DNA of 64,000 bases from an uncultured Nitrososphaerota archaeon (GCA_963824385.1 CAWGPD010000003.1:64001-128000), one strand, 5' to 3'; positions 20,394 through 40,559 are shown, counted from the first letter of the stretch. The notes: generated from the sequence alone by a model not told the origin. A program made the numbers and translations.

Positions 20394-21190
20394 TAACTAC
20401 CAAACATCGATGTTATGATGTCATTTACTTTTTGGAATTCGACGCTACCCCATTGCAAGTATATGTTGGCAAATACTACCTCTGCCGCTTGCCTTGTTTT
20501 CATACCTGAATCAAGAATCTTTGCAAATGCTATTGTTTCACGCAAGCTTGGAGAATAGTATAACTCTTCTACTGCAGCTGCTTGTCGTAAAATATTTGCC
20601 AATTTTATTCCTTGCAAGATCTCCTTTTCATGAGATGATGATGAATACTGCTTGACTATTCGAAATTCAATATCCTCTGGTGGATAATCTAGTCTAAGTC
20701 TTATGGGGAATCTGCTTAGTAATTGTGGTGGAAGCTCTTTTGTACCAACATGTGATAACGGATTAATTGTAGCAACAACAAACCATCCTTTAGTAGCTTT
20801 TATCAATTCTCCACCCGATTCTTTTAGAACAATCTGTCTTCTATCATCAAGTGCTTCATCAAGGCGAAGAAGGACGTCTGCCTCTGCAGAATTTATCTCA
20901 TCAAGATAAAGCATGTTTCCCTCTCTCATGGATTTGACTAGGATTCCTTGCTCAAATCCAATTGCACCGTTTTCCATTGTTTTTGCTCCTACCAGATGAC
21001 TCTCACGTGTTCTTAAACTAAAATTGATTGACTCTAGCTTTATTCCTTTTCTTGTGGCAAATTCTCTTACTAGTGTAGTCTTACCTGTACCCTTGGGACC
21101 TATTATGAGAACAAATAGATCAGCGGCAAATGCTTTGTCTAGAACTTCAAATGAATTATTCCAATCAATATACAATGATTCTGTAAGCAT
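20393..21190 (-). CDS. MoxR-family (CbbQ/NirQ/NorQ type) AAA+ ATPase
   Basis: GPKGTGKT, LYLDEIN, ATINP, LLSRF. Confidence 0.9.
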   Translation of the reverse strand: MLTESLYIDWNNSFEVLDKAFAADLFVLIIGPKGTGKTTLVREFATRKGIKLESINFSLRTRESHLVGAKTMENGAIGFEQGILVKSMREGNMLYLDEINSAEADVLLRLDEALDDRRQIVLKESGGELIKATKGWFVVATINPLSHVGTKELPPQLLSRFPIRLRLDYPPEDIEFRIVKQYSSSSHEKEILQGIKLANILRQAAAVEELYYSPSLRETIAFAKILDSGMKTRQAAEVVFANIYLQWGSVEFQKVNDIITSMFGS

Positions 21191-21327
21191 GTTTGAACAA
21201 AGTTCTTTCCTTAATTTAAAAATGTCTCATTGTTTAACACTAGGTATAGCAGAATTAATCTTCAAAGAATGTGAAAAGCAGTTCTATTCCAATTAATATT
21301 CCTTGATCTAAATATCTTTGAATTTTT

Positions 21328-22780
21328 TTATACGCCTATTTTTGCGTATGATTCATCCAAAATATGGTGTAAGGTTTTATGCCAAGCATCAAAACCATCT
21401 GGTTTCTTGGGGAAGTTGTAATAATGTTCTGTTAATGCTTTATTTTGTTGTGCAGTGAATCTAAGTCCATCTGCAAGAGTTTTGTTGAGTGCACCTCTTA
21501 TCATCATGCCTAAGCTTTCCAACAGTTCCAAAGTCTGGGTGCTCTCCTTTGCTAATTGCTTCCACGTCTAATTTTGATAAAAAGTGCTTCATTCCATAGT
21601 TTATCTGTTCATTTGTTAGAGTCTGGAGTAAACGTCTGAAAATCTCAAGACCTGCTGTTTTGTATCCATAATCATTAATAAAATCAATATTGTATTGCCA
21701 AAGACCTGCTTCGCTAACATCTCCTGCTTCAATTGCATTTACTGCATTTTTACCTAAGATAGTTGCTGCAACTATCGCTGGACCAATTCCTCCAGCATCA
21801 AGTGGTTTTGGCATCCATGCAGAATCACCAACAAGCATGTATCCATTTGTAACCAAACAATCATTTTGTCTTCTCACAGAAACTTGCCAATTACCTGTTA
21901 CATTATTGGAATCCATTGAATCGTCTGATAATTTTGGATTTATTATGGCCTTGTTCATCTTGACATAATCATTAATTAATTTAGTGACGTCATCATGTGT
22001 TCCTAATCTTTGGTTTCTTTTTATCAACTCTTTTTGTTGAACGCCCAATCCAATGTTTACCTTGTTTTTTCCTTTTGGAAATACCCATCCATATCCTCCA
22101 GGAGCTATATCTTGATCAAGATGAATTATACAATAATCTGGATCAAACTCTTTCTTGTCATCTACACCTTGATCAAATTTCATAATATGTCGTCCTGTTG
22201 ATTCTAAATCATCACGGTCAATTTTTCGCTCTATCTTGTTGCTTATGGTAAGACCGTTTCTTAACATCGAAGTAACACCAGTGGCATCAACTACAATTTT
22301 TGCAGTTTTTTTGAATGGCTCTTTTGTAAGTAGATTTGTTCCTTCTACTCCAACAACTGCACCGTTTTCATATGTTAAACCCCTTAATGCAACAGAATAT
22401 TGGATGTTAATTCCTGCTTTTTTTGCATCACGAAGCTGACGTTGGGGAAGCTGTTGTCTGTTTAACATGTATCCATCGCCATCAAAAGGAATTGATGTCT
22501 CTCTATCAGGGGAAAATGCCATCACTCCCTTTACGGGATGCTCAATCTCTGGGTTACCCCATGCAATCTTGATTCTCTCAGTCATGTAATCTACAGTATT
22601 TTTTCCAACGGCATCACCACAAACCCATCCATTGAGTGTCTTCATGCCAATGGTAATCTCGGGATTTCTATCTATTACAAGAATTGATAATTTTTGTTTT
22701 GAATAATACGCAGCAGATTGAGCAGCAATCATTCCTGCAAGACCTCCACCTGCTACAATGATATCATAATCTGTTTTCAC
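21328..22780 (-). CDS. Geranylgeranyl (DGGGPL) reductase family (frameshift near 21511)
   Basis: GGGLAG FAD motif, VCGDA, GYGWVFPK, GDSA...PLDAGG. Confidence 0.88.
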
Positions 22781-22842
22781 AGCGAAAAAACAGGATCCAC
22801 TCTATTTAAAAGAACCGTATGGAAATAGATCAAAAGGATTTT

Positions 22843-22915
22843 GGGTCGGTTCGTCGCGGCTTCTTCACAGCAGATGCTCAGACTGGAGCGGCAAAAATAT
22901 TACCTCATTCCCTTT
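22843..22915 (-). ncRNA. Box C/D guide sRNA (23S P-loop and H89)
   Basis: GGG-A-ATGAGG (degenerate C)...GCCGCTCCAGT-CTGA (D')...GTGAAGA (C')-AGCCGCGACGAA-CCGA (D)-CCC; upstream TATA-like TTTAATAATA. Confidence 0.75.
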
Positions 22916-22964
22916 TCTCTAGGGTTGACAAATATTATTAAACTATGCTAGGCGCTGATTTTAT

Positions 22965-23387
22965 TCAAACTGTGAGTAACTCTATGTATTTTTTTGAAAT
23001 TTCATCTTTTTTGTAGATTGGCATTTTTACCTTGATTTTTATTGCATTATTTTGTTGTAAACTAATTTCTTTATTTACAAGTTCATTCTTGCCTATCCTT
23101 AAGAAAAGTGTAGTATCTTCAAAATACAAATCTATGTTTTCTATTAGATCTTTCATCTGAGTCTTTGATATTTTGGACGCTAATTTTTTAACAAATTCTT
23201 CTCCACGTTTTTTTGATAGTGTTATCTTGGCAAGCAATATTGGATTTCCATAATGACCAAGAGTTTGTTCTATGGTAAATTCATCTTCTTTTATTTGAAA
23301 CAAGTCAAAGATGGGCTCAAAGATTTTTTTATTATCCTCTGTTGCATGTAAGATTAATTCAGCTTCTACTTCGAACTGATGTGTCAT
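22965..23387 (-). CDS. DUF54-type RNA-binding protein
   Basis: LHATED, GHYGNPI, LFLRIGK. Confidence 0.82.
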   Translation of the reverse strand: MTHQFEVEAELILHATEDNKKIFEPIFDLFQIKEDEFTIEQTLGHYGNPILLAKITLSKKRGEEFVKKLASKISKTQMKDLIENIDLYFEDTTLFLRIGKNELVNKEISLQQNNAIKIKVKMPIYKKDEISKKYIELLTV

Positions 23388-23421
23388 GTTATGTAATACC
23401 TGAAGAATAGGCTAATATCTA

Positions 23422-24036
23422 TTAGGCTTGTAACAGGGCAATCTCGCCCTCTGCAGTCCTGATGAGCTTTGCCTTTTCAATTCCTACGTGTCTTACGTGA
23501 ACTATCTTCTTGACAGCTGCCATGATATCAGAATTAATCTTTCCAAATACTGTAGCCTGGATGAACTGATCTATTGACATTTCTGGTATAGTCTTTGTCA
23601 TTACTTCCTGTGCCACCATTCTGATTGCATGCTTTCTTGACGTGTTCAACTTCTTCTGGGTCAAGGCAACTATCTTTATTCTAAAAATGTAACCATCCTT
23701 TGTCTTAAAATCTGCAATAAAACTAATCAATGAGGAACCGCGTCTTACTAAACTTCTAAGAAATTCCTTTGCATACTCAAATCTCTTGAAAATTGTAGTT
23801 GCTTTTTCACCATCTATTTTGTCAATCTGGAAATACAATTTGAACTGGTGTTGGGAAGGATCTCCTTTTAGTATATCGTGTAATGTGCATTCTATTACTC
23901 TGCCAACTGCACCCTTTTCATCAGTAATTGGAATGTAAGCAATTGGTTTTTTGTCAAACGAAGCAGGAAGTAATACTGTTACCCACTTTTTCTCTCTCCA
24001 CTTGTCTTTTACTCTTGATGTCTTTTGACGAGCCAA
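23422..24036 (-). CDS. rps3ae: 30S ribosomal protein S3Ae
   Basis: KDKWREKKW, RSLVRRGSS, TKDGY. Confidence 0.95.
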   Translation of the reverse strand: MARQKTSRVKDKWREKKWVTVLLPASFDKKPIAYIPITDEKGAVGRVIECTLHDILKGDPSQHQFKLYFQIDKIDGEKATTIFKRFEYAKEFLRSLVRRGSSLISFIADFKTKDGYIFRIKIVALTQKKLNTSRKHAIRMVAQEVMTKTIPEMSIDQFIQATVFGKINSDIMAAVKKIVHVRHVGIEKAKLIRTAEGEIALLQA

Positions 24037-24079
24037 CTATGATGAACTTCTGAGGCCAAAATATAAGTTGTACGACATT

Positions 24080-25343
24080 TTAGATTAGATTAGAGCCTAC
24101 GTATTTTTCTAATACCTTTGGAACTGTAATATGTCCATCTTTTGTCTGGAAATTTTCTATTATTGCAACCATAGTTCGAGTGGTTGCTACCAGTGTGCTA
24201 TTCAAGGAATGGAGATATTGTGGTTGTTCATCTGTTCTATCTCTAAATCTTATTTTTAATCTTCTTGCTTGAAAATCAAGACAATTTGAACAAGATACAA
24301 TTTCTCTATAGCTCTTCTGTCCTGCCATCCATGCTTCCAAGTCATATGTCTTGGCAGAGATCTTGCCCAAATCTCCACTTGATAATAACATGATTCTGTA
24401 CGGGATGCCAATTTTTTGATAAAATTCTTCTGCTATTGCAAGCATTTTTTCATGTTCCTTCCATGAATCCTCAGGTCTTGTAAAGACAAACTGTTCTACT
24501 TTTTCAAATTGATGTACTCGAAATATTCCCTTTTGGTCTCTACCATGAGCTCCTGCTTCTTTTCTAAAACATGTACTTACTCCTGCATATCTTAGCGGTA
24601 ATTTTTTACCATCAATAATCTCATCTGAATGCATTGATGCTACTGCATGCTCACTTGTTCCAATGAGGTAAAGATCTTCAGACTCTATCTTGTAAATCAC
24701 ATCTTCAAAATCTTGGGCAATTATAGCCCCTTCCATTGCATTTCTATTTATCAAAAATGGCGTTTGGATGGGTGTGTAACTTTTCTCAGTCAAAAAATCA
24801 AGTGCATATTGCAGTAACGCTTGATTTAACCTAACAAGTTGATTTTTGAGAAAGTAAAATCTTGCTCCTGAGACCTTGGCGGCTCTTTCCAAATCCACAA
24901 GGTCAAGATTCTGTGTCAAATCGATATGGTCTTTTATATCAAAATCAAAAGTAGGTATAGTACCCCATTTTTTTATCTCCTTGTTTGCAATGTCATCTTT
25001 TCCAATAGGAACTGATTCGTGGACCATATTGGGTAGTGTTAAAGAAAGTTTTGTGAAATTATCTTCTACCTTTATCTGAGTCTCTTCTAATCTACGGAGA
25101 TCCTCCGAAACTGTTTGCATTTGCCCAATGAGGACAGATGCATCTTCATTTGATTTTTTTTTCCTTGAAATTTCTAATGATACCTCGTTTCTTTTTTTCC
25201 TCAATTCATCAGTTTTTATAATTAGTTCTCTTCTTTCCTTGTCTAATGATATTAATTCATCAAGAGGAAATTTGACAGACTCTTGCTTCCAACATGGATT
25301 TTATTTTCTCTGGATTCTCTCGAAGAAGTTTTGGGTCAAGCAT
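24080..25343 (-). CDS. serS: Seryl-tRNA synthetase (1-nt insertion near 25278)
   Basis: True start MLDPKLLRENPEKI at 25343; FRKEAG, GIFRVHQFEKVE, EIVSCSNC, LNST. Confidence 0.95.
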
Positions 25344-26966: not shown

Positions 26967-27415
26967 TATTCGAGTTGAGCAATGACTGCCTTATATTTCC
27001 AAGTTTTAGGAATTTTGCCCATTTTCTTGTAATATGAAGAAAGTCTATGGACCTTTGCCTCTAAGAGCTCAAGTGATCTGACATTTCTTTTATCTGATCT
27101 ATGTTCTTTCAAATGTTTTTGAAGACCCAGTGCCTTTGTTACTAGATTATTAAGATCTTCAGGCATGTCTGTTTTTACTCCCTTCTCTTCAAGAATCTCT
27201 GTAATTGACTTTTTGACAAGTTGTCTTGTGATCGGTATTGCGTATTGATCACGTAGTTTTATTCCGATCTTGCTTGGGGTGAGACCTTCTTTTGCATATT
27301 TTACAACCAGTTCCTCGATCTCTGCCGGACTTTGTTTTACCCATGTAGGTGCACTAGGAGTGATCGGTCTTGTTGAATGTGACTTGCCATGTCGGTGTGA
27401 ATGAAGTCGTCCCAC
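26966..27415 (-). CDS. rps15: 30S ribosomal protein S15/S13e
   Basis: GKSHSTRP, IGIKLRDQY, PEDL..L, KVHRLSSYYK. Confidence 0.96.
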   Translation of the reverse strand: MGRLHSHRHGKSHSTRPITPSAPTWVKQSPAEIEELVVKYAKEGLTPSKIGIKLRDQYAIPITRQLVKKSITEILEEKGVKTDMPEDLNNLVTKALGLQKHLKEHRSDKRNVRSLELLEAKVHRLSSYYKKMGKIPKTWKYKAVIAQLE

Positions 27416-27522
27416 GAAGCGCTTGTTTTTTAACGAAACATAAATGTTACTTGGGTCTGCGCAAGCCTGATAATCACATAAAAGTTAAATATATACGGAA
27501 TAGAATCACAATAGGTATTCAT

Positions 27523-27828
27523 ATGAAAACACCAATAATTATTGGAACAGTACTCCTGGCTCTATTTGCAGTCTCGACGTTTGTTCCGTTTGCTGCGGCA
27601 CAATACGTGCCAGGCGGTGGAATCAACAGTCTAGAAGAAGATTTGAAACTCGCTCGAGCTAAAGTACAGGCAGTACAAGATAATCCGCACGCAGGTTCCG
27701 GTACTCCATACCTTGATGCAAACGGTGTAGTCGGTGCAACAATCATTTCAGGTGGAATATTCGGTGGAATCTTCATTGCATTTGTCGTAAAAGCAAAGCA
27801 AGCGGAAAAAGCAAAGAGATCTCAATAA
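27523..27828 (+). CDS. amoZ: Probable archaeal AMO subunit AmoZ
   Basis: Signal peptide (AAA|Q), helical segment, GSGTPY, C-terminal TM; adjacent to rps15; assignment is from recalled synteny/topology. Confidence 0.7.
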   Translation: MKTPIIIGTVLLALFAVSTFVPFAAAQYVPGGGINSLEEDLKLARAKVQAVQDNPHAGSGTPYLDANGVVGATIISGGIFGGIFIAFVVKAKQAEKAKRSQ

Positions 27829-27922
27829 TTCTTCTCTTTTTCTTATTTTATTAATTCATGAACAAATCTAATTTTGATCTCATTTTTTATGTGCTTACAG
27901 AAATGTATATATCGCACCTAAA

Positions 27923-28204
27923 GTGTTTTCAATTATGATGAGCACAATATTCACTATGCTCGTAGGTATACTGTCAAACTTTGCAGGTCAGATAGGTCCA
28001 AACTACGACCCGCTATTTTATGATGTGATGGTCTACATATTCGCAACCATCATGTTCTCAGTATTCCTTCTCGGAGTAATTGCATTCTGGCTCAGAGTGC
28101 ACGGTCTTGGTGGCGACACAAGAGAAAGATGGGTCGCAGAACTCAACAAGCACTTTGAAAGAGAAGGCATTGGTCTGATCCCAGACAACGGTAAATACTG
28201 GTAA
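27923..28204 (+). CDS. amoY: Probable archaeal AMO subunit AmoY
   Basis: Small TM protein directly after amoZ with own TATA and T-rich terminator; assignment from recalled synteny. Confidence 0.65.
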   Translation: MFSIMMSTIFTMLVGILSNFAGQIGPNYDPLFYDVMVYIFATIMFSVFLLGVIAFWLRVHGLGGDTRERWVAELNKHFEREGIGLIPDNGKYW

Positions 28205-28299
28205 ACTCCAAAACCTTTTTCCTTATTTTTAATTAATCTCTAAATTATATAATTTTGAATAAATTTTACTTGAAGTCTAGTTCTAATTTATTTTAAAGT

Positions 28300-28812
28300 C
28301 TAACTTGGAGGTGTAAAGGTTGGGGCTCCGGCGTTCTTTGTGACAAATTCTGCCCTGTAATGAGACCCATCATGAACTATGGCATGGATAAATTGAGATG
28401 ACTCTACACCATTTTCATATATTATTGATTTGGTCTCATCCATGTCTCGTAAAGGAAAACCTGACAACCATAGAAATTGCCCTACCTCAAATGGATATTC
28501 ACTTTGCCATGCACCAGTAATTGTTCCATCATCGGCAAAGACCATAGACCTTTGACAATTAGCTGGAATATCCGTAGTACTAATTGGCCTTATCCATTTT
28601 TTACCATCAACTAGAACTTCTAGCGTGGCAGATACATGATATTGGATATTCAATCCATTGAGACATTTATGATAAAGAGGATCTTGTAACTTTATCTGTG
28701 AAATGACTGTAGTACTAATCAATACGACTGCTACTCCTACAGCGGCTGAAATTGCAAGAAACTTGAGCGTTTTTTTACGTTTGGAAGGATCTCCCATTCC
28801 AGGCCAGAACAT
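28300..28812 (-). CDS. Membrane-anchored extracellular hypothetical protein
   Basis: Basic N-terminus plus TM helix; two Cys; YHVSATL.V.VDG. Confidence 0.75.
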   Translation of the reverse strand: MFWPGMGDPSKRKKTLKFLAISAAVGVAVVLISTTVISQIKLQDPLYHKCLNGLNIQYHVSATLEVLVDGKKWIRPISTTDIPANCQRSMVFADDGTITGAWQSEYPFEVGQFLWLSGFPLRDMDETKSIIYENGVESSQFIHAIVHDGSHYRAEFVTKNAGAPTFTPPS

Positions 28813-28886
28813 GACTTTGCTGCGGTTTCTGGAGTTATATAGATTGAGATATTTTTTATTAAATAATTAAAATATATAAAAGAAAT

Positions 28887-29234
28887 TTAGAGTGAGGATT
28901 CGCCGCGTTTTTTGGTTCCTACATCTACTGCATCTGCTACATCATAGATGAAGATCTTTCCTTCTCCAGCTTGACCAGTACCTGCATGAGAAGTTATTGC
29001 ATCTATTACTTTGTCCACCATACTGTCCTTTACAACTGTAATGATGATAGCATTCACATTGTGTGTAGCTTCTACACGTCCTCCTCTGCCCGATGAAACC
29101 ATTTCTCTTTTCCTTTGACCTCTGCCCTTGACATTAAAATACGTAAATCCTCCAATGTCAAGATCTACCAGAGCATAGAAGACGGAATCCAATTTTTCTT
29201 CTGGAATTACAGCCTCGATTTTTTTCATGGTCAT
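28887..29234 (-). CDS. glnB: PII nitrogen regulatory protein
   Basis: MKKIEAVI, VKGRG T-loop, TGQAGEGKIFI. Confidence 0.93.
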   Translation of the reverse strand: MTMKKIEAVIPEEKLDSVFYALVDLDIGGFTYFNVKGRGQRKREMVSSGRGGRVEATHNVNAIIITVVKDSMVDKVIDAITSHAGTGQAGEGKIFIYDVADAVDVGTKKRGESSL

Positions 29235-29301
29235 GATTCATTGCACATATGAAATGCTTTTATTAAAATCATTGCTTAAAATATTCCAAAATAAAGAATA
29301 T

Positions 29302-29346
29302 TATCATAAAATAACTATTTTAGGATAAAATACCTTTTATAGATGA
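29302..29346 (+). promoter_or_regulatory. Promoter with palindromic operator, copy 1 (Cas4-like gene / divergent PII)
   Basis: TATCATAAAA-N6-TTTTAGGATA, then TTTTATAG starting 31 nt before ATG 29366. Confidence 0.75.
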
Positions 29347-29365
29347 AATCCCTCTTTTCAAAAGA

Positions 29366-30115
29366 ATGACAGAATCCAAAGCTCACTACAAAAAAGCAAA
29401 GATAATTGGAAAAGTTCAAGACAAACTTAAGGAAGGAATTGAAAACTACCGTGCGGCATCTGATTCACCGCCTCGAGTAGATGTTTACGATGTCATTGAA
29501 CAAGTCTTTGCAGCACTTAATCCAAAAGTAGCTGATGAAGGAAAGATCTCAGTAGATGAGGTAAGCGGTTGTTTAAGATTTGCATACCTTGATCGAAAGG
29601 ATCCGTCTGAAAGCAATCACAAACAGATGGTGTCAAAGATAATGAAAAAGAGCGCATTTAGTATAATGGAAAAACCGCTTGATGGTCAACTCGATGCAGG
29701 TTCTAACGTAAAGATTGTCGGTAGAGCTGATAGAGTTGAAGATGAAGTGGTGATGCTCTTTAGAGGTTCAGAAAAATTACCTGAAATGCCATATCCGGCA
29801 GATTTCATACATCTGAACTCCTATCTATTCATGTTTGACAAACCAGAAGGAGTGATTGTCTACTTTGATAGGGAAGGAAATGAAATGGAATTCAACGTTC
29901 CAAAAAGTGAGAAACTCTTAAACGAAACAAAACGTAGAGCAAAAATTCTCAATACCTTGCTGACAAACAACATTGCTCCTGCAATCGAACCATCTGAGAA
30001 ATGCATGGAATGTCCTCACAATGAGAAATGTTACTATGCAAATGAAGACAAACAGAAATGGGGATTCTGGGCTCGTGGCAAGTGGCGTGAACTCAAATCA
30101 AAATCCATCCTATAA
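29366..30115 (+). CDS. Solo Cas4-like Fe-S protein with degenerate nuclease motifs
   Basis: SVDEVSGCLR plus CMECPHNEKC (4 Cys); GRAD retained; ExK appears as LFR and QxxxY as HLNSY. Confidence 0.8.
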   Translation: MTESKAHYKKAKIIGKVQDKLKEGIENYRAASDSPPRVDVYDVIEQVFAALNPKVADEGKISVDEVSGCLRFAYLDRKDPSESNHKQMVSKIMKKSAFSIMEKPLDGQLDAGSNVKIVGRADRVEDEVVMLFRGSEKLPEMPYPADFIHLNSYLFMFDKPEGVIVYFDREGNEMEFNVPKSEKLLNETKRRAKILNTLLTNNIAPAIEPSEKCMECPHNEKCYYANEDKQKWGFWARGKWRELKSKSIL

Positions 30116-30165
30116 TCACACACTTTTTTCATTTTAATTTTATTATTATCTAGAGATGATTCTAA

Positions 30166-30393
30166 TTATTTGAGAGATTCTGATTCTTCTGGATTTAGAA
30201 AAACGCGTGTCTTGAAGGGTTTTTCAGAATCTTTGTGAAAATAAAAAATCTTGATGCCATGCTCAAAAGGTTTGATTTCTATTTTATCAGATAATTGGAT
30301 GGAGCTATCTTCTTGTCTGAGATATTGGTATAATTCCTCTTCATCCATCTTCAGTATTTCGCTTATCCGCTTTCTTGTTCCCATGTTGATCAA
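30166..30393 (-). CDS. Hypothetical protein
   Basis: Plausible 72-75 aa ORF filling the gap. Confidence 0.6.
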   Translation of the reverse strand: MINMGTRKRISEILKMDEEELYQYLRQEDSSIQLSDKIEIKPFEHGIKIFYFHKDSEKPFKTRVFLNPEESESLK

Positions 30394-30470
30394 AATAATG
30401 TCAACTTATTTGACATCTTAACTTTTCTTATTGGAAATTTTTGCTTGCAATCTAATCATTAAATACAATC

Positions 30471-30962
30471 TTGCTTCTTGGAATTGACATGTCTGATTCA
30501 AAAATAGAGTGGTTTGAAGATCTTTTAGGCTTGGGGTATCATGTATTTGATGTACGTCCTACTGTATACCTGATATTTGATAATAAAAAAAAACTTGTTA
30601 CCGCCTGGAATCAGATAATAAAATACTGGCCAGACTATGAAATAAAAATGAGATTCTTTGAAGGAGATACTAACTATGAATTTATTCTGTATTGCCAATC
30701 TCGTATATTACAAAAAACAACTGTTTTCTTAAAATCGCTAAAACTATCGGATAACTATCAACAGTTTATGGAAGAATACAATGGGTCTGCATCATTGCAA
30801 GTTGCAAACTATTCTCCCAAGAATAAAAAATATGGGCTAGAGATATTCAAGTTCAAAAAGAAGGTAATTGACGTACAATTCCTAAAAAAAGAAGATACAG
30901 TTGATGATTTTGTCGTTTTACAGGCACTAAAAAGGCTCAGACAGACTCCTGAGAAAAAATAG
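30471..30962 (+). CDS. Hypothetical protein
   Basis: 163-aa ORF, no recognised motif. Confidence 0.65.
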   Translation: MLLGIDMSDSKIEWFEDLLGLGYHVFDVRPTVYLIFDNKKKLVTAWNQIIKYWPDYEIKMRFFEGDTNYEFILYCQSRILQKTTVFLKSLKLSDNYQQFMEEYNGSASLQVANYSPKNKKYGLEIFKFKKKVIDVQFLKKEDTVDDFVVLQALKRLRQTPEKK

Positions 30963-30971
30963 TTTAATGCC

Positions 30972-31463
30972 TTATGGTTTTTTTAATTTTGATGCTATCA
31001 AGCCTATCCAAAGACTCCAGTCCAAATTTTTAAAAACAAGAGGTTGACGAGAAGGATAATTTGTAACCGTTTTAGAAATTCCAAAATCATATTTTTTCTC
31101 TTTTCCTTTTTCTGTAAATGTGATTCGTAAGAAATCTACATTTCTTGCTGTTATGCTTTTAACATCTGTTATGGAATTTAATGGCATTATCCAGGATTTT
31201 GGATTCTCAGTCAAATCTTCGTCAAGATCTGATTCGTTGTAATCTGACATCTTTCCTATACTTGCCTTGTCATCTTCAAAATATCTCACCTTTTCTTTTC
31301 CAGTTATCCATATGTATCGTGGAACAAAAATTACTTTTTTATTTGTAAGAACTAGAACACCTTCTTTATTTTTATGAAAGAAACCGCTTAACCCTAATGC
31401 TATTCCCCAAATCTGAGGAAGTGATGCAATAATGTACTCTTCTTCTTCAAGATTTTTTCTCAT
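30972..31463 (-). CDS. Hypothetical protein, possible PH-like fold
   Basis: GVLVLTNKKVIF and MPLNSITDV segments. Confidence 0.6.
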   Translation of the reverse strand: MRKNLEEEEYIIASLPQIWGIALGLSGFFHKNKEGVLVLTNKKVIFVPRYIWITGKEKVRYFEDDKASIGKMSDYNESDLDEDLTENPKSWIMPLNSITDVKSITARNVDFLRITFTEKGKEKKYDFGISKTVTNYPSRQPLVFKNLDWSLWIGLIASKLKKP

Positions 31464-31543
31464 AATTTGTTTAGCAACTTTTGTGAATAAATCAATCTAT
31501 CTAATCGTGGTGATTATACAAAAATGTGGTAGAGGGTTCTGCT

Positions 31544-31705
31544 CTAGGCGTGACCTTGACCTTCGTATCTCATGCCATAGGTACCCCAAGTCTTGCCTTT
31601 CTTTGCTAAATTATACCTGTGGGCTCTTTCACCAAAGTAAATTGCTATTGTCATTGCAAGACATGCTGCAGTTGCAATGAAAATGTTTATGCCTGCTTCT
31701 GTCAT
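31544..31705 (-). CDS. 53-aa single-TM microprotein divergent from amt (not in ORF track)
   Basis: MTEAGINIFIATAACLAMTIAIYFGERAHRYNLAKKGKTWGTYGMRYEGQGHA*; TATA-like element ~25 nt upstream. Confidence 0.65.
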   Translation of the reverse strand: MTEAGINIFIATAACLAMTIAIYFGERAHRYNLAKKGKTWGTYGMRYEGQGHA

Positions 31706-31805
31706 GCGTGGTTTAGTTAGGATGTTGTATAATAATTTTATTTAGAATTTTTTCAAATTCTATGATACCAAAATTTTTACAAAATTTGGATCTTAAATGG
31801 TATAA

Positions 31806-31850
31806 TATCATAAAAAAAATATTTTAGGATAAAATGCCTTTTATAGATGA
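31806..31850 (+). promoter_or_regulatory. Promoter with palindromic operator, copy 2 (amt / divergent microprotein)
   Basis: 42/45 nt identical to 29302-29346; TTTTATAG starts 31 nt before ATG 31870. Confidence 0.75.
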
Positions 31851-31869
31851 GAAACTTCTCTATCCAAAG

Positions 31870-33375
31870 ATGCTGGAGACAATTTCTAAATCGCCAATAC
31901 AGATAGTAACAAAACACAAATGGCCGGTAGTTTTTGTGCTCGCAGGCTTAATAGTCGGGTTATCTGGATTCACGGCAATACAGGATGCACACGCTCAGTT
32001 TGGTCCGTTAGGAGCTCTTGCAGATCCTAATAAAACTAATGAGCTTCACTGTGCTCAGCCGATGATACCACCAGGTAATGGAACGTTCGGTGGAAGTAAT
32101 GCCCCATGTATAGATACAGGAGATACAACCTTCATGTACGCAGCAGCAGTCTTCGTCATGATCATGACTCCTGGTGGTGTGGGATTCTTGTATGGAGGTC
32201 TTACAAGAAGAAAGCACTCTCTAACAGTAATTTTACAGGCATTCATGGTCTATGCAATTGTCAGTGTTCAATGGGTAGTCTTTGGATACTCGATAATGTT
32301 TGGTCCTTCTGCTGATCCTGTTGGATTTATCGGAAACCTTGACTGGGTAGGCTTGAATAACGTATCGCACAATGCACCAGCCGATGTATATGCTCCAACC
32401 ATTCCTCACTTAGCCTATGTGATGTTCCAACTCATGTTCGCTGCCATCACTCCGTCACTTGCCATAGCTGGTTATGCTGACAGAGTAAAGATGAGTGCAT
32501 TTCTAATACATGTTGTATTGTGGACTACATTTGTCTATGATTTCGTAGGACATGCAAACTGGTCTCTTGCAAGTCAGGGTACCGCGATGGGCTGGTTAGC
32601 CAAGATCGGTACGGAAGACTTTGCGGGTGGAACAGTCATTCACATCACCTCAGGATTTGCAGGTTTAGCTACCGCAATGTTCTTGGGAAGAAGAATAGGA
32701 TATGGCAAGGCACCATTTGAACCACACTCAATTCCGCTTATAATTTTGGGTGCATCATTACTTTGGTTTGGATGGTTTGGTTTTAACCCTGGTAGTGCAG
32801 GATTTGCTGGTTTCCTTGAAACACAAGCATTCCAGAACACCAACATTGCAACTGCTGTTGCAGCAATATGGTGGATGTTCTTAAGCTGGGCACATACAGG
32901 AAAGACTAGTGCCATAGGTGCGGTAAACGGAGCTGTAGCTGGACTTGTAGCAATCACGCCAGCCTCTGGTTTCATTGGAACGTGGGCATCAATAATAGTA
33001 GGATTTGCATGTGCAACGGTATGCTTCTACTGTGTATTAATCAAGAACAGGGCAAGAATAGATGATGCGCTGGATACTTGGGGTGTACACGGAATGGGCG
33101 GTGTTGTTGGTGCATTACTTACAGGTGCATTCAGTGAAGTCAGAATCAATCCATTTGGACACAATGGTCTCTTCTTTGGAAACCCAATGCAGTTTGTAAT
33201 TAATTGTATGGGTGCAGGATTTGGTGCAGCTTGGTCCTTTGGCATAACTTACATCATTTGGAGAATCCAAGATGCAATTTGGCCAGGTGGAGTTAGAGTC
33301 ACACCAAAAGAAGAAGAAGTAGGATTGGACATATCTCAAGTAGGCGAACACGCGTACTCTGGATTCGCAGAGTAA
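31870..33375 (+). CDS. amt: Ammonium transporter Amt
   Basis: DTGD, FQLMFA, DFAGGTVIH, LWFGWFGFN, GLVAITP, GVHG; start moved to 31870 because the 31834 ATG abuts the TATA box. Confidence 0.96.
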   Translation: MLETISKSPIQIVTKHKWPVVFVLAGLIVGLSGFTAIQDAHAQFGPLGALADPNKTNELHCAQPMIPPGNGTFGGSNAPCIDTGDTTFMYAAAVFVMIMTPGGVGFLYGGLTRRKHSLTVILQAFMVYAIVSVQWVVFGYSIMFGPSADPVGFIGNLDWVGLNNVSHNAPADVYAPTIPHLAYVMFQLMFAAITPSLAIAGYADRVKMSAFLIHVVLWTTFVYDFVGHANWSLASQGTAMGWLAKIGTEDFAGGTVIHITSGFAGLATAMFLGRRIGYGKAPFEPHSIPLIILGASLLWFGWFGFNPGSAGFAGFLETQAFQNTNIATAVAAIWWMFLSWAHTGKTSAIGAVNGAVAGLVAITPASGFIGTWASIIVGFACATVCFYCVLIKNRARIDDALDTWGVHGMGGVVGALLTGAFSEVRINPFGHNGLFFGNPMQFVINCMGAGFGAAWSFGITYIIWRIQDAIWPGGVRVTPKEEEVGLDISQVGEHAYSGFAE

Positions 33376-33482
33376 ACTATTCCCACCTTTTTCATTTTTA
33401 TGTTTTCCAAGTCGCTGTTGATTGATTATTATTTCTTAAATTGAGAAACAGTAAATAGATGTCAATTTACCAAACTTTGTAA

Positions 33483-33689
33483 ATGGCAGACAAGTGGTTA
33501 GTTTTTGTTGCATTACAATTTGTTAGTGCTGCAATTGGATTTGGTTTTTGGTATCTTGTTGATCATAGTTTTATCTTTCTAATGGTAGGAGGGCTCTTCT
33601 TTACACTTGGAACATTTGGTGCCACACGCTGGGGCTTTGACAAATGGAAAGGTAAAAACAAACCAAGAAAACGCGAAAAGAAACGATAA
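33483..33689 (+). CDS. Small two-TM protein
   Basis: Two hydrophobic segments, basic tail. Confidence 0.6.
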   Translation: MADKWLVFVALQFVSAAIGFGFWYLVDHSFIFLMVGGLFFTLGTFGATRWGFDKWKGKNKPRKREKKR

Positions 33690-33773
33690 TTTTATTTTTT
33701 ATGTTTTAATTTTTGATTTTCATATAATGGTATCTTTTATATCAATCACAATTTGCACTACCTGTAGATATTC

Positions 33774-34460
33774 TTGTCAGCAAAAAAACTCACATCTAGT
33801 AAAAAGAGACGTCTTGTAATATTTGCCATAATTACCATAATTGGAATTTCATATGCATTTTACAATTCGCAACTCAACTCTGGTTTTAAACATACCGTGA
33901 TGTGGAACTTTGATTCGTATCAAAATGGGACAATCCCCCAGGGTTTTGCTGCACTATCTACTGATCAAACGCCTTCCTGGGTAATAGTATCAGACCCAAC
34001 TGCACCATCTCCACCAAATGTATTGGAAAAAATACCGATTAATGATACTAATGATTATCATCTACAATTAATTCCAAATTCGCCTAATGTTGATACTGAA
34101 AATGTCACCATGAATTTTAAAATTGTGTCAGGTGAAAATGCAAAGTCTGCAGGTATGATTCTTCGATTCGTTGACATGAAACATTATTTTGTTTTGATGG
34201 CAGATTCTGGCCAAAACAGGCTCTCTTTATGCAAGGATACTCCTGACTTTTTATTGTGTATTTATGAAAAAAATATTACGATTACTTCAGGTCAGTGGCA
34301 TACACTCAAAGCATTGGTATCTTCGCAGGGAATAGCCGCATATCTTGATGGTCAAGTTGTCATACGAGCAAATGATCATAATTATCTGCAAGGACAAGTT
34401 GGACTGTGGACCAAGAAAGACACTGGTGCATTATTTGATGATCTTAAAATAGAGTACTAG
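33774..34460 (+). CDS. Membrane-anchored DUF1080/ConA-like beta-sandwich protein
   Basis: N-terminal TM; AGMILR..D...YF, GQWHTLK, G.VGLW, FDDLKI. Confidence 0.7.
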   Translation: MSAKKLTSSKKRRLVIFAIITIIGISYAFYNSQLNSGFKHTVMWNFDSYQNGTIPQGFAALSTDQTPSWVIVSDPTAPSPPNVLEKIPINDTNDYHLQLIPNSPNVDTENVTMNFKIVSGENAKSAGMILRFVDMKHYFVLMADSGQNRLSLCKDTPDFLLCIYEKNITITSGQWHTLKALVSSQGIAAYLDGQVVIRANDHNYLQGQVGLWTKKDTGALFDDLKIEY

Positions 34461-34540
34461 CACAAACTCGTTTTAAAATTCTGGTCGAGTCCTTACACTA
34501 AAATTGCCTAGAGATTTGAATAGACTTTAGTTACAACAAT

Positions 34541-34819
34541 ATGGAGTCAATTGATGCCCAAGAAAAATTTCTCAAGATTCAGCTCATACTTGCAGTAATA
34601 CCTACATTTGTGACTCAGTTGTTTGCGTTTTACAGAATACGAAAACTAACCTATGGTATCATAATTGAAGTGATAATATTTTTTGTAGACTTGGTAATTC
34701 AGACAAGTATATCATGGCCATTTGGAGTGATAATTGTACTTCCGATATCTGTTTTAATTCCTGTTTACTTTGTACGAAAGTGGACTTTGGAATTTAACCA
34801 AACAAAGTCCATGTTCTAA
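34541..34819 (+). CDS. Small membrane protein
   Basis: Hydrophobic 92 aa, LFAFYRIRKL. Confidence 0.65.
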   Translation: MESIDAQEKFLKIQLILAVIPTFVTQLFAFYRIRKLTYGIIIEVIIFFVDLVIQTSISWPFGVIIVLPISVLIPVYFVRKWTLEFNQTKSMF

Positions 34820-34870
34820 AAATAGTTTATACTAATTCAAATAAAATGAAAAGAGAGGGGGTGATTGTTT

Positions 34871-35438
34871 TTAAATCACTTGCCAAGGTCTTGTAGCGAA
34901 AGTAACCACATATCCAATTGCAATGACTATCGATTGATAGGCTACGTTTACATATGGAATTGGTTTTACGATTGGATCGCCTGTTACCACGACTGTTTGT
35001 CCTGGACCTAGACCTGGACCGATGCTTGCTATGTTAAGTCTGTGTATGCATGTGATATACTGCTGGTTCAAGTGCTCTGATTGTTAGCTTGTATGGAACC
35101 ACTCCGTTTGCTGGTATTGTAATTACGTTACCAGGTGGATCTCTTGCTACAATCTCCCATCTGTTACCAGCGTTTGGTGAGTCACCGTAAACGGTGTACC
35201 ATCCTCGCAAGTCTCTGTTTACAAGACTTACAAATTTGCCAGAAACTGTCAGAGTGTCTCCTGTTTTAACAGATTGTTTTGACCAAGTCTCACCATCTAT
35301 TCTAATAAAACGACTCTGTAGTTGTGCCTGGACACCATGTGCTTCAGCATGTTGGAACATTTGTGCCATTGATGGTCCAACTGCTCCAAGTGCTACTATC
35401 ACACTTATTGCAGCCACAATAAACTTCTTATCGACCAT
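34871..35438 (-). CDS. amoB: Ammonia monooxygenase subunit B (1-nt insertion near 35039)
   Basis: Signal peptide, AEA|HGVQAQLQSRF, YHMHTQ then LNIASIGPGLGPG in the shifted frame. Confidence 0.95.
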
Positions 35439-35690
35439 ATCGAACTGTAACAATTGAGAAACTACAACGATATATATTTTGCCCTGACTGATCCCTCTTA
35501 TGACAATAATCATGTATAACAGCGGTGTTAATCATGTATAATGTAATTTTATGTATGATGTAATTATCATATTGTATGTTGATTTAAAGTATTATTGATA
35601 TAATTTTTGGCATAAAAATATAAGAATTATACTTGATCTTATAGAAATTATAACTTATGGTTTAAATAAGTATCAACCATTCACTACTCC

Positions 35691-36254
35691 ATGGCACAAA
35701 TGCCCGCACTAATTCCAAAAGAAGTTGAAATCCAGAGACTGAAGAAGATCTGGCTTATCATCATCGCATTGGGATCAATTGCAGCATCAGTAGAGGTTGA
35801 TAACTTCGTAGATGGATCTTTACACCAGACATCAATCAGAGATAGTGCCTTCACACCAGCACACTGGTGGTTATACAGCCACTTCATTGCTCTTCCATTA
35901 GGATGGGGAATGGTAGCTATGTATGATAGAAAAGTACCAATCCTGAGAGGTCCAAACAACTCAATGAACACAGGTCTTAAGATGACCATCCTTGGTTACT
36001 TGGCAACAATGTTTACCATTGGTGTTAATGAGATGTGGCACTTCTGGTATGTAGAGGAGATCTTTGCAGTTCCAAATCACTGGATGTTTAACATGGGTGT
36101 CGTCGTTGCTTTCATGGGTGCACTTGCCTATGTAGTAAGAGTATACGCACGACTCGTCGAACTTGGAGCAGAAACCCCAGGAGAGAACCCATATGTTGCA
36201 GAAATGTACAAGATGGCCTTAGAGGGCAAATTGTACAGCAGATCAATCCCATAA
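35691..36254 (+). CDS. amoC: Ammonia monooxygenase subunit C
   Basis: MAQMPALIPKEVEIQRLKK, DGSLHQTSIRDSAFTPAH, NEMWHFW. Confidence 0.98.
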   Translation: MAQMPALIPKEVEIQRLKKIWLIIIALGSIAASVEVDNFVDGSLHQTSIRDSAFTPAHWWLYSHFIALPLGWGMVAMYDRKVPILRGPNNSMNTGLKMTILGYLATMFTIGVNEMWHFWYVEEIFAVPNHWMFNMGVVVAFMGALAYVVRVYARLVELGAETPGENPYVAEMYKMALEGKLYSRSIP

Positions 36255-36361
36255 ACGCGCAAAAGGCGCTCTTTCTCTTTTATTTTTCCCGATCAAATTA
36301 ACGCAAGTTATGTCTCATCTTGGGAAAAGATTTAAAAGCATACATCTGTCATTAAATCCAA

Positions 36362-36724
36362 ATGACCTTACCAAAAGGATTCGGTACTGGTGGCGGAGCT
36401 TCAAGTTCCGATATAAGCAAGATGATAGGACGACGTGTAGAAGATCACTTCGGAATTATTACTGCATTCTTCCTCGCATTATGGGGAGGAACATGGGCAG
36501 GAATAGCAGTCGCATGCGTTTACTATCCTTGGGCATATCCACCGCCAAGCGCACACTTTGCATTGACATGCCTTACAATTATCGAGGCAATAGGTTACTT
36601 GTTCTGTGTTAAAGTAGTAACTGAAGGTACATCAAAAGCAAAGACATACAATGGTGCAATCGCTGGCATAATCGCAGCAGTAGCAATAGGCACATTGCTT
36701 ACAGATTGCTTCTTCTTCGGTTAG
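36362..36724 (+). CDS. amoX: Ammonia monooxygenase subunit X
   Basis: TLPKGFG..GG, MIGRRVE; lies between amoC and amoA. Confidence 0.88.
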   Translation: MTLPKGFGTGGGASSSDISKMIGRRVEDHFGIITAFFLALWGGTWAGIAVACVYYPWAYPPPSAHFALTCLTIIEAIGYLFCVKVVTEGTSKAKTYNGAIAGIIAAVAIGTLLTDCFFFG

Positions 36725-36835
36725 AAATTCCCTTTTCATCTTTTCTTTTATTATCCAGATCTAACTTGAGTTGATCTCGTTGTTGATCTCGTACTTGATA
36801 AAATTTTATATACATCACATCCTGAATACAATCCA

Positions 36836-37486
36836 ATGGTCTGGCTAAGACGATGTACTCACTACTTATTCATAGTAGTGGTAGCAGTCAACTCGACCCT
36901 GTTGGTAATCAACGCAGGAGACTACATATTCTACACTGATTGGGCATGGACATCATATGTGATATTCACATTATCACAATCATTGATGCTCGCAGTTGGT
37001 GCAGCATATTACCTAACGTTCACTGGTGTTCCAGGAACTGCAACATACTATGCACTGATAATGACGGTGTATACGTGGATTGCAAAAGGTGCGTGGTTCT
37101 CCTTAGGATACCCATACAGCTTCATCGTTGTTCCGATATGGATTCCGTCAGCAATATTGATGGACTTGGCATATTGGGCAACAAAGAGAAACAAACACTC
37201 TTTGATCCTAATCGGCGGTGTACTCTGTGGAATGTCTATGTCGTTGTTCAACATGATCAATCTAATTACAATAGATGATCCTCTTGAGACTGCTTTCAAA
37301 TACCCGAGAACCACATTGCCTCCATACATGACCCCAATAGAACCCCAAGTAGGAAAGTTCTATGATAGTCCCGTAGCTTTGGGTGCAGGCGCTAGTGCAG
37401 TATTAACGGTAACAATGACTGCATTAGGAACCAAACTAACAACATGGACTTACAGGTGGATGGCAGCTTGGTCTAAGTGGGACTAA
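36836..37486 (+). CDS. amoA: Ammonia monooxygenase subunit A
   Basis: MVWLRRCTHY...YRWMAAWSKWD, canonical archaeal AmoA. Confidence 0.99.
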   Translation: MVWLRRCTHYLFIVVVAVNSTLLVINAGDYIFYTDWAWTSYVIFTLSQSLMLAVGAAYYLTFTGVPGTATYYALIMTVYTWIAKGAWFSLGYPYSFIVVPIWIPSAILMDLAYWATKRNKHSLILIGGVLCGMSMSLFNMINLITIDDPLETAFKYPRTTLPPYMTPIEPQVGKFYDSPVALGAGASAVLTVTMTALGTKLTTWTYRWMAAWSKWD

Positions 37487-37520
37487 CTTCCCTTTCCTTT
37501 TACTTTTATTATTTTACTTG
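37487..37520 (+). terminator. Pyrimidine/T-rich terminator after amoA
   Basis: CTTCCCTTTCCTTTTACTTTTATTATTTT; similar tracts follow amoC, amoX, amoY, amoZ and amt. Confidence 0.55.
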
Positions 37521-37575
37521 TAGTAAGCTATCTTCAAAATTTAGTTTTGATTAAAAAAAGTTACACAAGGTGTGA

Positions 37576-38485
<910 letters not shown>

Positions 38486-39230: not shown

Positions 39231-40559
39231 ATGGCCGGTTTTGGAAATATTGGCGGACTGTTGCTTGCAATCTTTGGGCTCTTAATTGCAGCCTTTGGGT
39301 TAAATGTGCACGGAAATCACTCAACTTATGCATTCATTCTCGGAGTAGGCTGTGCTGCTACTGGTGGAATAATTGTATGGTCTAGTAAAAGACAAGGAAA
39401 AAATTTCCAAACACAACCATATGAGGTCATATCTGGAAATACAACTTACTCTGTAGACTCGAAATACAAAAAAATCTATGAAGGCTCCCCAATTTTACAA
39501 AGAACGGTAAATACTTCTGGGATCATTCTAGAATGTAATCCTGCATATGTGAAAAATTTTGCAAATTCAAAAGAAGAAATTATCGGCAAGTCTATTTTTG
39601 ATCATGTCGCAGAAAAAAGTTCTGCTGATATGAAAAATGCCTTTGAAAACTGGAAGAAAGCTAATAAAGTAGACAATGTTGAAATATGGTTCAAAAGAAA
39701 AGATGGGACGACATTTCCTGGATTACTTTCTGCAAATAATATCTATGACGACAAAGGCAAAATGATAGGAAGTAATACTTTTATCAGAAATATATCTGAT
39801 ATTTATGACGCTCACAAAGTTCTCGAGGAGCATGAAAGACAAAAAATCCAGATTGACGAGCTACAAAAAACAGATTCTTCTAAAGCAGCATTTTATATGA
39901 CGGTTGCAAAAGAATCTCAAGTTCCTATATCTCCAATCTTGAAATATTCAAGGGATCTTCTAAAGGAGATTCCTCATGGAAAACTTACCAAAAAACAAGT
40001 AGAGGCAATAACTGAGATTCATGATAATGCAGCAAAACTTGATCAATTAATGATTGACATAATAGATGTACAAAAACTCAACACCAAAACCATGGAATTC
40101 AAAAAGGAGCCATTTAATGTTGATAGCTTGATGGGAGAAGTTGTTGAATTGTGCAAACCTATGATGGACGACAAGAAGATCAAGTTTGTAGATTCTTCAA
40201 GCACCAAAAAAACAATATCAAGTGACAAAGCCCTGTTAAACAAGGTCTTTTTCAATTTAGTACAAAATGCAGTTGATTTTGTGCCTACAACAGGCGCACA
40301 AATAGAGATAGGCGCCAAGGAGGAAGGTGATTCTGTGGTATTTTATGTAAAAGATAATGGGGTTGGCATAATGGATAAAAAGAAAGAATTTGTCTTTAAA
40401 AAATTCTATCAGGTGGATATTACCTACAAGAGAAAATATGGCGGTAGTGGATTTGGGTTGGTTATCTGCAAAGGAATTGTCGAAAACCTTGGCGGAAAAA
40501 TTTGGTTTGATACTCAAAGGGATGTAGGTACGACATTTTATTTCTCAATTCCAGCATAA
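39231..40559 (+). CDS. Membrane PAS histidine-kinase-like protein lacking the H-box His
   Basis: 2 TM, PAS/PAC, N/G1/F/G2 boxes; H-box reads VAKESQVP. Confidence 0.85.
   Translation: MAGFGNIGGLLLAIFGLLIAAFGLNVHGNHSTYAFILGVGCAATGGIIVWSSKRQGKNFQTQPYEVISGNTTYSVDSKYKKIYEGSPILQRTVNTSGIILECNPAYVKNFANSKEEIIGKSIFDHVAEKSSADMKNAFENWKKANKVDNVEIWFKRKDGTTFPGLLSANNIYDDKGKMIGSNTFIRNISDIYDAHKVLEEHERQKIQIDELQKTDSSKAAFYMTVAKESQVPISPILKYSRDLLKEIPHGKLTKKQVEAITEIHDNAAKLDQLMIDIIDVQKLNTKTMEFKKEPFNVDSLMGEVVELCKPMMDDKKIKFVDSSSTKKTISSDKALLNKVFFNLVQNAVDFVPTTGAQIEIGAKEEGDSVVFYVKDNGVGIMDKKKEFVFKKFYQVDITYKRKYGGSGFGLVICKGIVENLGGKIWFDTQRDVGTTFYFSIPA

Follow-up and report, generated by a model that had tools for sequence, protein, structure and literature searches.

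Nitrogen genes of methanogens are repressed by NrpR, a factor which binds the palindromic operator GGAA-N6-TTCC, is released by an effector and controls both amt and PII genes. Ammonia-oxidising archaea drive much of nitrification, and the ammonium transporter Amt2 has been tied to their success at low ammonium, but their nitrogen gene regulator has so far been without an identified protein, and no regulator or operator of amt2 was found in the literature searched. We analysed 64,000 nucleotides (nt) from an uncultured Nitrososphaerota archaeon (GCA_963824385.1, CAWGPD010000003.1:64001-128000; hereafter the window), in which amt2 and a gene for a degenerate Cas4-like protein share a duplicated promoter region. 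The locus resembles the NrpR regulon in that amt and PII genes appear to be placed under one factor via palindromic operators. It differs in the operator consensus, as had already been noted in a reading of the window made from its sequence alone (the sequence-only reading), and in the position of the sites upstream of the TATA boxes of the target genes. The NrpR domain PF01995 had no match in the genome to which the window belongs (86% complete), while the controls were positive in two methanogens. The explanation that we favour overall, with a probability of roughly 0.55, is that a winged-helix protein would activate amt2 and the Cas4-like gene and repress its own gene. This protein is thus a candidate switch for amt2, and a 21-bp site and a spacing rule come with it.

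The segments 29302-29346 and 31806-31850 of the window are identical at 42 of 45 nt. In both, TTTTATAG (at 29335 and 31839) starts 31 nt before the ATG, at 29366 for the Cas4-like gene and at 31870 for amt2. These observations of the sequence-only reading were all reproduced. The arms of the inverted repeat are complementary at 9 of 10 positions. The motif occurs at these two places only: no further copy with 1 or 2 mismatches at spacers of 5-7 nt was detected in the 1.68-Mb genome, and none of 100 shuffles of the window yielded a match. The inner halves spaced by 6 nt are also the two top-scoring matches of the genome (25.4 bits; next 21.1). A recent chance duplication or misassembly with no counterpart in relatives had been named as one danger to the proposal. 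Both copies are, however, present in 24/24 relatives (the genomes of the genus in which both promoters were assembled), with arms conserved at 95-97%, the transcription factor B recognition element (BRE) and TATA box at 93-100% and the spacer at 44-60%. The Cas4-like and amt promoters are no closer to each other within a genome than between genomes (spacer identity 0.44 vs 0.44, leader 0.47 vs 0.48), which shows that the duplication is old in the genus and that the arms were kept by function or selection. The repeat is best read as two promoters under the control of one transcription factor. Apparent joint losses of amt2 and the Cas4-like gene within the genus were discarded as assembly gaps because such genomes also lack amo or have it fragmented (5 of at least 7 examined).

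The most widely shared element proved to be the half-site ATA-N-TATCAYAAAA, located 33 nt before the TATA box (TATA boxes and transcription starts are predicted throughout). The full palindrome is TTTTATGATA-N-TATCATAAAA, 21 bp long with a 1-nt spacer, and compensating changes preserve it in one locus (L117). The right arm of the N6 repeat is usually gone beyond Nitrosotalea-like lineages. Outside the genus, the half-site scored at least 8 bits in 10/18 Cas4-like and 12/15 amt2 promoters, and in 0/9 microprotein, 0/6 PII and 0/52 other module promoters. The spacing was exactly 33 nt in 21 of the 22 scoring promoters. In genus g62, which belongs to another family, the half-site stands at 33 nt in both the amt2 and the Cas4-like promoter although these are otherwise unlike, so that shared control does not depend on copying. 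The genome of the window contains 105 half-sites above 12 bits; only three of them have a TATA-like box 33 nt further on, namely those of amt2, the Cas4-like gene and the 53-aa microprotein, against a mean of 0.39 at other offsets, the offset having been picked after these promoters had been seen. The half-site before the microprotein (31758-31767, minus strand) is additional to the two sites noticed at first. The TATA box of the PII gene also lies exactly 33 nt from the first site, on the opposite strand, and the centre of operator 1 is equally distant from the PII and Cas4-like TATA boxes, a symmetry likewise not noticed at first.

An alternative without any factor supposes that a strong core promoter was copied from amt2 to its neighbour, that gene conversion keeps the likeness and that the palindrome is a by-product of A/T-richness. 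Copying does happen: in two genomes outside the genus, G098 (L071) and G161 (L075:8931-9270), the Cas4-like and amt2 promoters agree at 83/88 nt, leader and first codons included. In G161 the two copies face each other as an inverted repeat, the genes on either side being divergent, and an inversion of the block from the Cas4-like gene to the microprotein is what distinguishes the gene order from that of the window; such near-identity suggests occasional gene conversion or assembly collapse. Nevertheless, divergence within the genus has affected the spacer and leader but not the arms, the g62 promoters share only the half-site at equal distance, and both the compensated palindrome and the excess of half-site and TATA pairs at offset 33 speak against it. 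We therefore regard this alternative as extremely unlikely.

The spacing before the PII gene is 33 nt in 28/28 loci of the genus and 40 nt in 5/5 loci of the sister genus g30, and that before the microprotein gene is 33 nt in 25/25 loci of the genus and 32 nt in g30. Together with the absence of the half-site from the PII and microprotein promoters of other genera, these shifts indicate that the four-gene regulon is a Nitrosotalea feature. The predicted regulon core is amt2 and the Cas4-like gene. The proposal that one factor controls all four genes thus stands for these two promoters, and the inclusion of PII and the microprotein has to be restricted to this genus. Likewise, the expectation that the motif would be found upstream of amt, PII and cas4 in other ammonia-oxidising archaea was borne out by the half-site at amt2 and the Cas4-like gene, but neither for PII nor for the N6 inverted repeat as the widest element. 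A wider regulon was sought with strict and relaxed patterns in 10 complete genomes, and only the site between amt2 and the factor gene rose above the control level; a pattern match in genus g15 falls inside a coding gene. A second tandem site in Nitrosopumilaceae was considered and rejected, since the BRE and TATA box of the factor gene, on the other strand, account better for the conserved sequence 26 nt away from the palindrome. Two further observations concern amt1. In three Nitrosopumilaceae loci (L097, L099, L102) a different motif, TGATWATCA, is repeated between amt1 and PII, in 2-3 copies at intervals of about 12 nt; these repeats were not seen by eye in the amt1 promoter of the window's genome. 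In two genomes of genus g15 (L115, L116) which keep the winged-helix gene without Amt2, the half-site TTTATGATA precedes the sole amt gene (amt1) without a full-site score, a possible rewiring of amt1.

The candidate factor emerged from other Nitrosopumilaceae. Twenty genomes queried gave 17 amt2 loci and 3 amt1 loci, and two further loci brought the amt2 loci to 19. In 19/19 of these, an unnamed gene for a winged-helix protein of about 225 aa is divergent from amt2. The palindrome TTTTATGATA-N-TATCATAAAA lies between the two genes, at 99-100 nt before the amt2 ATG in 16/19 loci, in a search seeded with a consensus drawn up from those same sequences, and its half-site is the arm of the window repeat. 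Applied to the genome of the window, the matrix from the 19 loci found a site 99 nt before the orthologue of the winged-helix gene (G000:C2:102331-103011, on a contig other than that of the window and beside the ATPase operon). With 17.4 bits, this site ranked first among the intergenic matches and second of 140 matches above 8 bits, and other intergenic matches scored 11-14 bits. The corresponding site was the best in 30/30 loci obtained from 38 matching genomes of the genus, and in G084, which was outside the training set, the best genome-wide match lies at amt2. Two genera of one other family, g51 and g63, have extra paralogues of the factor next to amt2 copies, and the paralogue NVIE_022090 adjoins amt2 in Nitrososphaera viennensis (supplementary file 3 of PMC7785015). 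The loci of g51 and g63 are L093, L176, L177 and L183, in which divergent winged-helix paralogues border an amt2 copy on one side or on both; in L177 an amoC copy follows.

The model of the factor (predicted local distance difference test, pLDDT, 91) shows a winged helix and a helical C-terminal domain. Its nearest structures are of the PadR, MarR and Fur types, with Z 8-9 for winged helices over residues ~9-137 and a best Foldseek E of 0.03. The protein matched no Pfam family, and its atlas clusters are unnamed, the nearest named ones being HTH_5/HTH_20 at 0.80-0.82. It is annotated as hypothetical in both Nitrosopumilus maritimus (ABX13595.1) and N. viennensis. The family was found in 0/19 related genomes without amoA, and within our data it is confined to ammonia-oxidising archaea. 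In the reduced genus g41, amt2 is kept in 3/3 genomes, while the factor and the Cas4-like gene are both absent (0/3 each), no site occurs in 2/2 promoters searched, and the ATPase C gene now directly faces amt2. Position and this co-loss together make the winged-helix protein quite probably the binder of the sites. The 75-aa open reading frame (ORF) of the window was also considered as the factor and rejected, having neither a family match nor a site before its gene.

The factor gene heads or neighbours ATPase genes. In the window's genome (L119:3186-4757, G000:C2), a 523-aa frame seems to join a part which we take to be like ATPase subunit E with what is presumably subunit C of a V-type operon; this may be a fusion or an indel read-through. 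At L119:7104-8238 there is no gene in the place where other Nitrosopumilaceae have the short Cas4-like gene, nor does amt2 still neighbour the winged-helix gene; it looks as if the module near amo had taken over from both.

The proposed factor would recognise the half-sites TATCAYAAAA within TTTTATGATA-N-TATCATAAAA. Where it precedes the factor gene, the site starts 7-9 nt after a TATA-like box and covers the start region, which points to self-repression: binding would block initiation. At amt2 and the Cas4-like gene, binding to the half-site fixed at 33 nt before the TATA box, accompanied in Nitrosotalea by a second half-site beside the BRE, would recruit TFB and TBP and so activate transcription. 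In this genus, PII, through a site that its promoter shares with the divergent one, and the microprotein would come under control by the same geometry. The fixed upstream distance and the use of one site for two divergent promoters, as with the haloarchaeal activator GvpE, make activation of the targets fairly likely. It is possible, though rather doubtful, that the same factor and sites serve repression, with an oligomer by the BRE keeping TFB off until an effector releases it, as in the NrpR system. Such a mechanism would agree with the position of TTTTAGGATA, whose end is 7 nt from the TATA box, and its conservation of 96-97% within the genus, with the nearest folds of the factor, which are mostly those of repressors, and with the retention of amt2 in g41, easier to understand if loss of the factor means constitutive expression. 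However, g62 and families f4 and f9 have kept the distal half-site at 33 nt alone, their proximal half-site being missing or degenerate, and in other Nitrosopumilaceae about 59 nt separate the single site from the amt2 TATA box downstream of it, too much for a block. The signal to which activation would respond is proposed to be nitrogen status. Amt2 is the strongly transcribed transporter in N. devanaterra (PMC4836417), and it is cited second-hand as high at low ammonium in N. maritimus (PMC11559005).

The Cas4-like protein of the window has a Cas4 fold (best structure match SSO0001, 4IC1, Foldseek E 7e-9; profile match E 1.9e-5; model pLDDT 72) without reaching the curated Cas4 family (TIGR00372 20.9 bits, cut-off 65). 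The alignment comprised 114 full-length homologues of the 119 found. C69, C213, C216 and C222 are present in 114/114, which fits the 1+3 Cys pattern of a [4Fe-4S] staple, and the protein is probably Fe-S-bearing. The E-x-K of motif III and the His of motif I have catalytic roles in Cas4 and SSO0001. The motif III Glu is absent from all 114 sequences (I/V/M/L/A at position 131; R in 91, K in 22 and S in 1 at position 133), and the motif I His is replaced by E/Q/D/K/R/N at position 94 among the 112 sequences listed. The earlier description as a degenerate Cas4-like gene was thus justified. That the protein is an active stand-alone nuclease of repair or recombination, with a positional link to amt2 only, agrees with the fold and the cysteines, with the kept motif II acid (Asp in 85, Glu in 29 of 114) and with the mostly kept Tyr of QxxxY; virus-mediated recombination has been speculated for stand-alone Cas4 near atp operons, where the short type described below was noted (PMC6863869, in part). 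Such activity is very unlikely in view of the replaced Glu and of the His not seen among the listed residues; the short paralogue is equally degenerate, and linkage to amt2 outlasts several rearrangements. A defence or viral origin was not adopted: PADLOC gave weak Cas4 models only, and two weak phage records were found. As to a CRISPR context, cas1 was not found in the window's genome (86% complete).

Two types of Cas4-like protein can be distinguished. The long type, the only one in the window's genome, always lies near a distinct Amt2 clade (support 100/100) and sits in a shuffled eight-gene module in this genus, in g30 and in families f4, f9 and f15. The short type lies near ATPase genes in most ammonia-oxidising archaea; in the two Nitrosopumilaceae loci read, its distance from amt2 is no more than about 2.5 kb. 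The 217-aa 'Cas4' detected in the N. viennensis proteome with 8 unique peptides is, judging from its length and name, presumably of the short type. Among 91 genomes of the Nitrososphaeraceae-type family f15, 54 have both the Cas4-like protein and Amt2, 32 neither, 4 the Cas4-like protein alone and 1 Amt2 alone, an agreement in 86/91; loss of Amt-2 in Nitrosocosmicus is already published (PMC11559005, in part). Transport in g41 proceeds without the Cas4-like protein, which thus looks tied to regulation and not to transport itself. The placing of a Cas4 protein in an ammonium module is strengthened by this lasting linkage, and we infer a nuclease-dead accessory of regulated Amt2 uptake. The 'Cas4 exonuclease' widely annotated in ammonia-oxidising archaea is thereby recast as a pseudo-enzyme whose gains, moves and losses go with those of Amt2 and, if this is true, would represent a cellular non-defence use of a Cas4 fold.

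Several observations weigh against control by the winged-helix factor as outlined above. The window sites are weak as 1-nt-spacer palindromes (10.8 and 8.3 bits), and the C2 site, being the orthologue of the region used for training, is not independent of it. The promoter of the factor gene has no strong site in f15 (best 8.2 bits, 12 loci) and a weak one in g30, despite which the amt2 and Cas4-like promoters of f15 and g30 carry the half-site. Cas4-like promoters are without the half-site in f4 (0/2), f9 (0/5) and G307, and the short Cas4-like paralogue has no strong site (best 8.9 bits, 7 loci). The co-loss in g41 is a single event in a genome that lost much else, and the 32 joint absences in f15 are confined to four genera, which implies few independent events, perhaps only two to four. 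The factor is retained in 15/15 g15 genomes without Amt2 and must therefore have other work, perhaps at the ATPase genes that follow; it may accordingly tie ammonium uptake to energy or pH and not to nitrogen. Finally, in Nitrosopelagicus both amt transcripts fell in the ammonia-limited stationary phase (10.1101/175141, in part).

Some of these observations would suit a different binder, either the Cas4-like pseudo-nuclease regulating itself or another factor, with the winged-helix gene being merely a target. The Cas4-like gene has a site before its own start in 10/18 loci outside the genus, tracks Amt2 better than the winged-helix gene does and is also missing in g41, and the f15 winged-helix promoters lack a strong site. 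On the other hand, no strong site precedes the short Cas4-like genes, to which most Nitrosopumilaceae with the strongest palindromes are limited, the winged-helix gene is directly divergent from amt2 in 19/19 loci, and its paralogues stand beside amt2 in g51 and g63. The Cas4 fold, moreover, binds single-stranded DNA ends rather than palindromes. We consider a different binder unlikely and retain the winged-helix protein as the candidate. It can be tested in N. maritimus (ABX13595.1) or N. viennensis (NVIE_022090). A more far-reaching scenario is offered tentatively, as a rather improbable one. The winged-helix protein would be the missing nitrogen regulator, and the nuclease-dead Cas4 its Fe-S sensing partner, reading nitric oxide, O2 or redox state from ammonia oxidation and setting high-affinity uptake either through the factor or by taking the role of PII at Amt2. 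Cas4 would have been recruited in the ancestor of ammonia-oxidising archaea, and the long paralogue would move with the distinct Amt2 clade as an eight-gene module, which in Nitrosotalea would have displaced both the ancestral amt2 and the short paralogue at once.

Features of the amt2 module and its promoters in the window (positions counted from the first nucleotide of the window)
Feature	Position	Strand	Remarks
PII protein gene	28887..29234	-	divergent from Cas4-like gene; PF00543 E 2.3e-20
Predicted TATA box of PII promoter	29260..29267	-	33 nt from outer half of operator 1
Operator 1 as 1-nt-spacer palindrome	29291..29311	.	left half degenerate, right half TATCATAAAA; 8.3 bits (matrix from other genera)
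Cas4-like promoter: proximal half-site TTTTAGGATA, BRE region and TATA box	29318..29342	+	93-100% conserved
Cas4-like gene, long-type Cas4-fold pseudo-nuclease, 249 aa	29366..30115	+	Cys 69, 213, 216, 222 invariant; motif III Glu lost
75-aa protein, no known family, conserved member of amt2 module	30166..30393	-	no Pfam/NCBIfam match
157-aa protein, no known family, conserved module member	30489..30962	+	
163-aa protein, conserved module member, possibly PH-like fold	30972..31463	-	weak, sub-cut-off
53-aa microprotein, divergent from amt2	31544..31705	-	hydrophobic N-terminal stretch, likely single membrane helix
Microprotein promoter: half-site TATCATAGAA (31767-31758) 33 nt before predicted TATA (31734-31727)	31727..31767	-	
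Operator 2, distal site of amt2 promoter	31795..31815	.	10.8 bits as 1-nt-spacer palindrome
amt2 promoter: proximal half-site, BRE region and TATA box	31822..31846	+	
Amt2-type ammonium transporter of distinct module-linked clade	31870..33375	+	TIGR00836 397 bits, over cut-off; clade support 100/100
68-aa membrane protein, basic tail	33483..33689	+	downstream of amt2 in nearly all module copies
228-aa membrane-anchored lectin-like protein (ConA/LamG-like, below cut-off), conserved module member	33774..34460	+	

The identities originally given to the genes of the locus were upheld for PII by PF00543 and for Amt by TIGR00836, with the similarity to Cas4 being weak as described above. The 53-aa ORF likewise behaves as a gene, since third codon positions make up only 3 of the 71 invariant columns among 11 orthologues. 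Microprotein orthologues occur in four families, with 12 representative matches, two of them long unrelated-looking proteins. The longest amt ORF opens at 31834, within the promoter, and the start conserved among relatives is 31870. The 75-aa gene adjoins the Cas4-like gene in other families too. Weak PH-type Pfam matches were found in 6/17 members of the 163-aa family, and in two f9 loci (L066, L067) a 28%-identical paralogue of this gene is divergent from a second, non-module Amt2. Downstream of PII, a 170-aa membrane-anchored protein of no known family (28300-28812), whose position is conserved in the genus and in g30, may be co-transcribed with PII. RNA contigs from soil metatranscriptomes of relatives, which indicate presence only, cover the Cas4-like gene, amt2, PII and amo genes in 4/4 runs and leave the 75-, 157- and 163-aa genes uncovered in most bins. 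A search of 27000-38000 against Rfam gave no match to a non-coding RNA.

Eleven genes lie between amoB and the two small genes that the sequence-only reading called amoY and amoZ. This layout agrees with the 11-12 genes reported between amoYZ and amoABCX in Nitrosotalea (PMC10030591, in part), and the arrangement of amo, Amt and PII genes is likewise published (PMC4836417, in part). The names of homologues suggest Nitrosotalea as the genus of the window. Directly after amoA (37618-38485) there is a DNA adenine methyltransferase, presumably Dam-like by its motifs, split into two ORFs in different frames. Close behind the amo cluster stand what we take to be a membrane PAS-type histidine kinase (39231-40559) and a regulator-like gene with a helix-turn-helix (41694-42593). 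Several housekeeping genes within 19269-25204 appear to start or end in another frame (19269-20393; 21328-22780, presumably geranylgeranyl reductase-like; 24080-25204, presumably seryl-tRNA synthetase), which suggests assembly indel errors.

The factor, the operator and the pseudo-nuclease partner appear to be undescribed, while the regulon as such is a known kind of system; no description of the operator, the factor or the link between Cas4 and Amt2 was found in the full-text literature searched. Among stand-alone Cas4 proteins, SSO0001 (PDB 4IC1) shares the fold, the four-Cys staple and the motif II acid with the Cas4-like protein, which differs in lacking the motif III Glu and the motif I His, in its extra conserved N-terminal helix and aromatic/basic C-terminal tail and in being tied to an ammonium transporter. 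The inactivated Cas4 of the virus TTV1, a viral nucleocapsid protein, is the sole inactivated derivative named in the available part of PMC5704561. In Methanosarcina mazei, GlnK-AmtB and the small protein sP36 (PMC10714827, in part) similarly combine PII, Amt and a small protein under common control, which suggests the same gating logic here. The two small proteins differ, however: sP36 stays in the cytoplasm until upshift, and the microprotein of the window is hydrophobic in its N-terminal part. PII and amt do not form a glnK-amtB operon in the window, where 2.6 kb and five genes separate them and their strands differ, and PII is absent from many module copies. The promoter architecture is closest to the divergent GvpE promoters of haloarchaea (PMC2241852, in part), with their invariant distance between upstream activating sequence and BRE and one distal site midway between two promoters; at our locus the site lies upstream of the BRE at a constant 33 nt (28/28 and 25/25 loci in the genus, 21/22 scoring promoters outside it). 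TFB-RF1 of Pyrococcus furiosus (PMC5937170, in part) offers a two-part site just upstream of the BRE and a transporter as target. The motif described here is unrelated to those of GvpE and TFB-RF1, and the candidate, for which an activating role analogous to theirs is proposed, matches no Pfam family and combines a PadR/MarR-like winged helix with a helical C-terminal domain.

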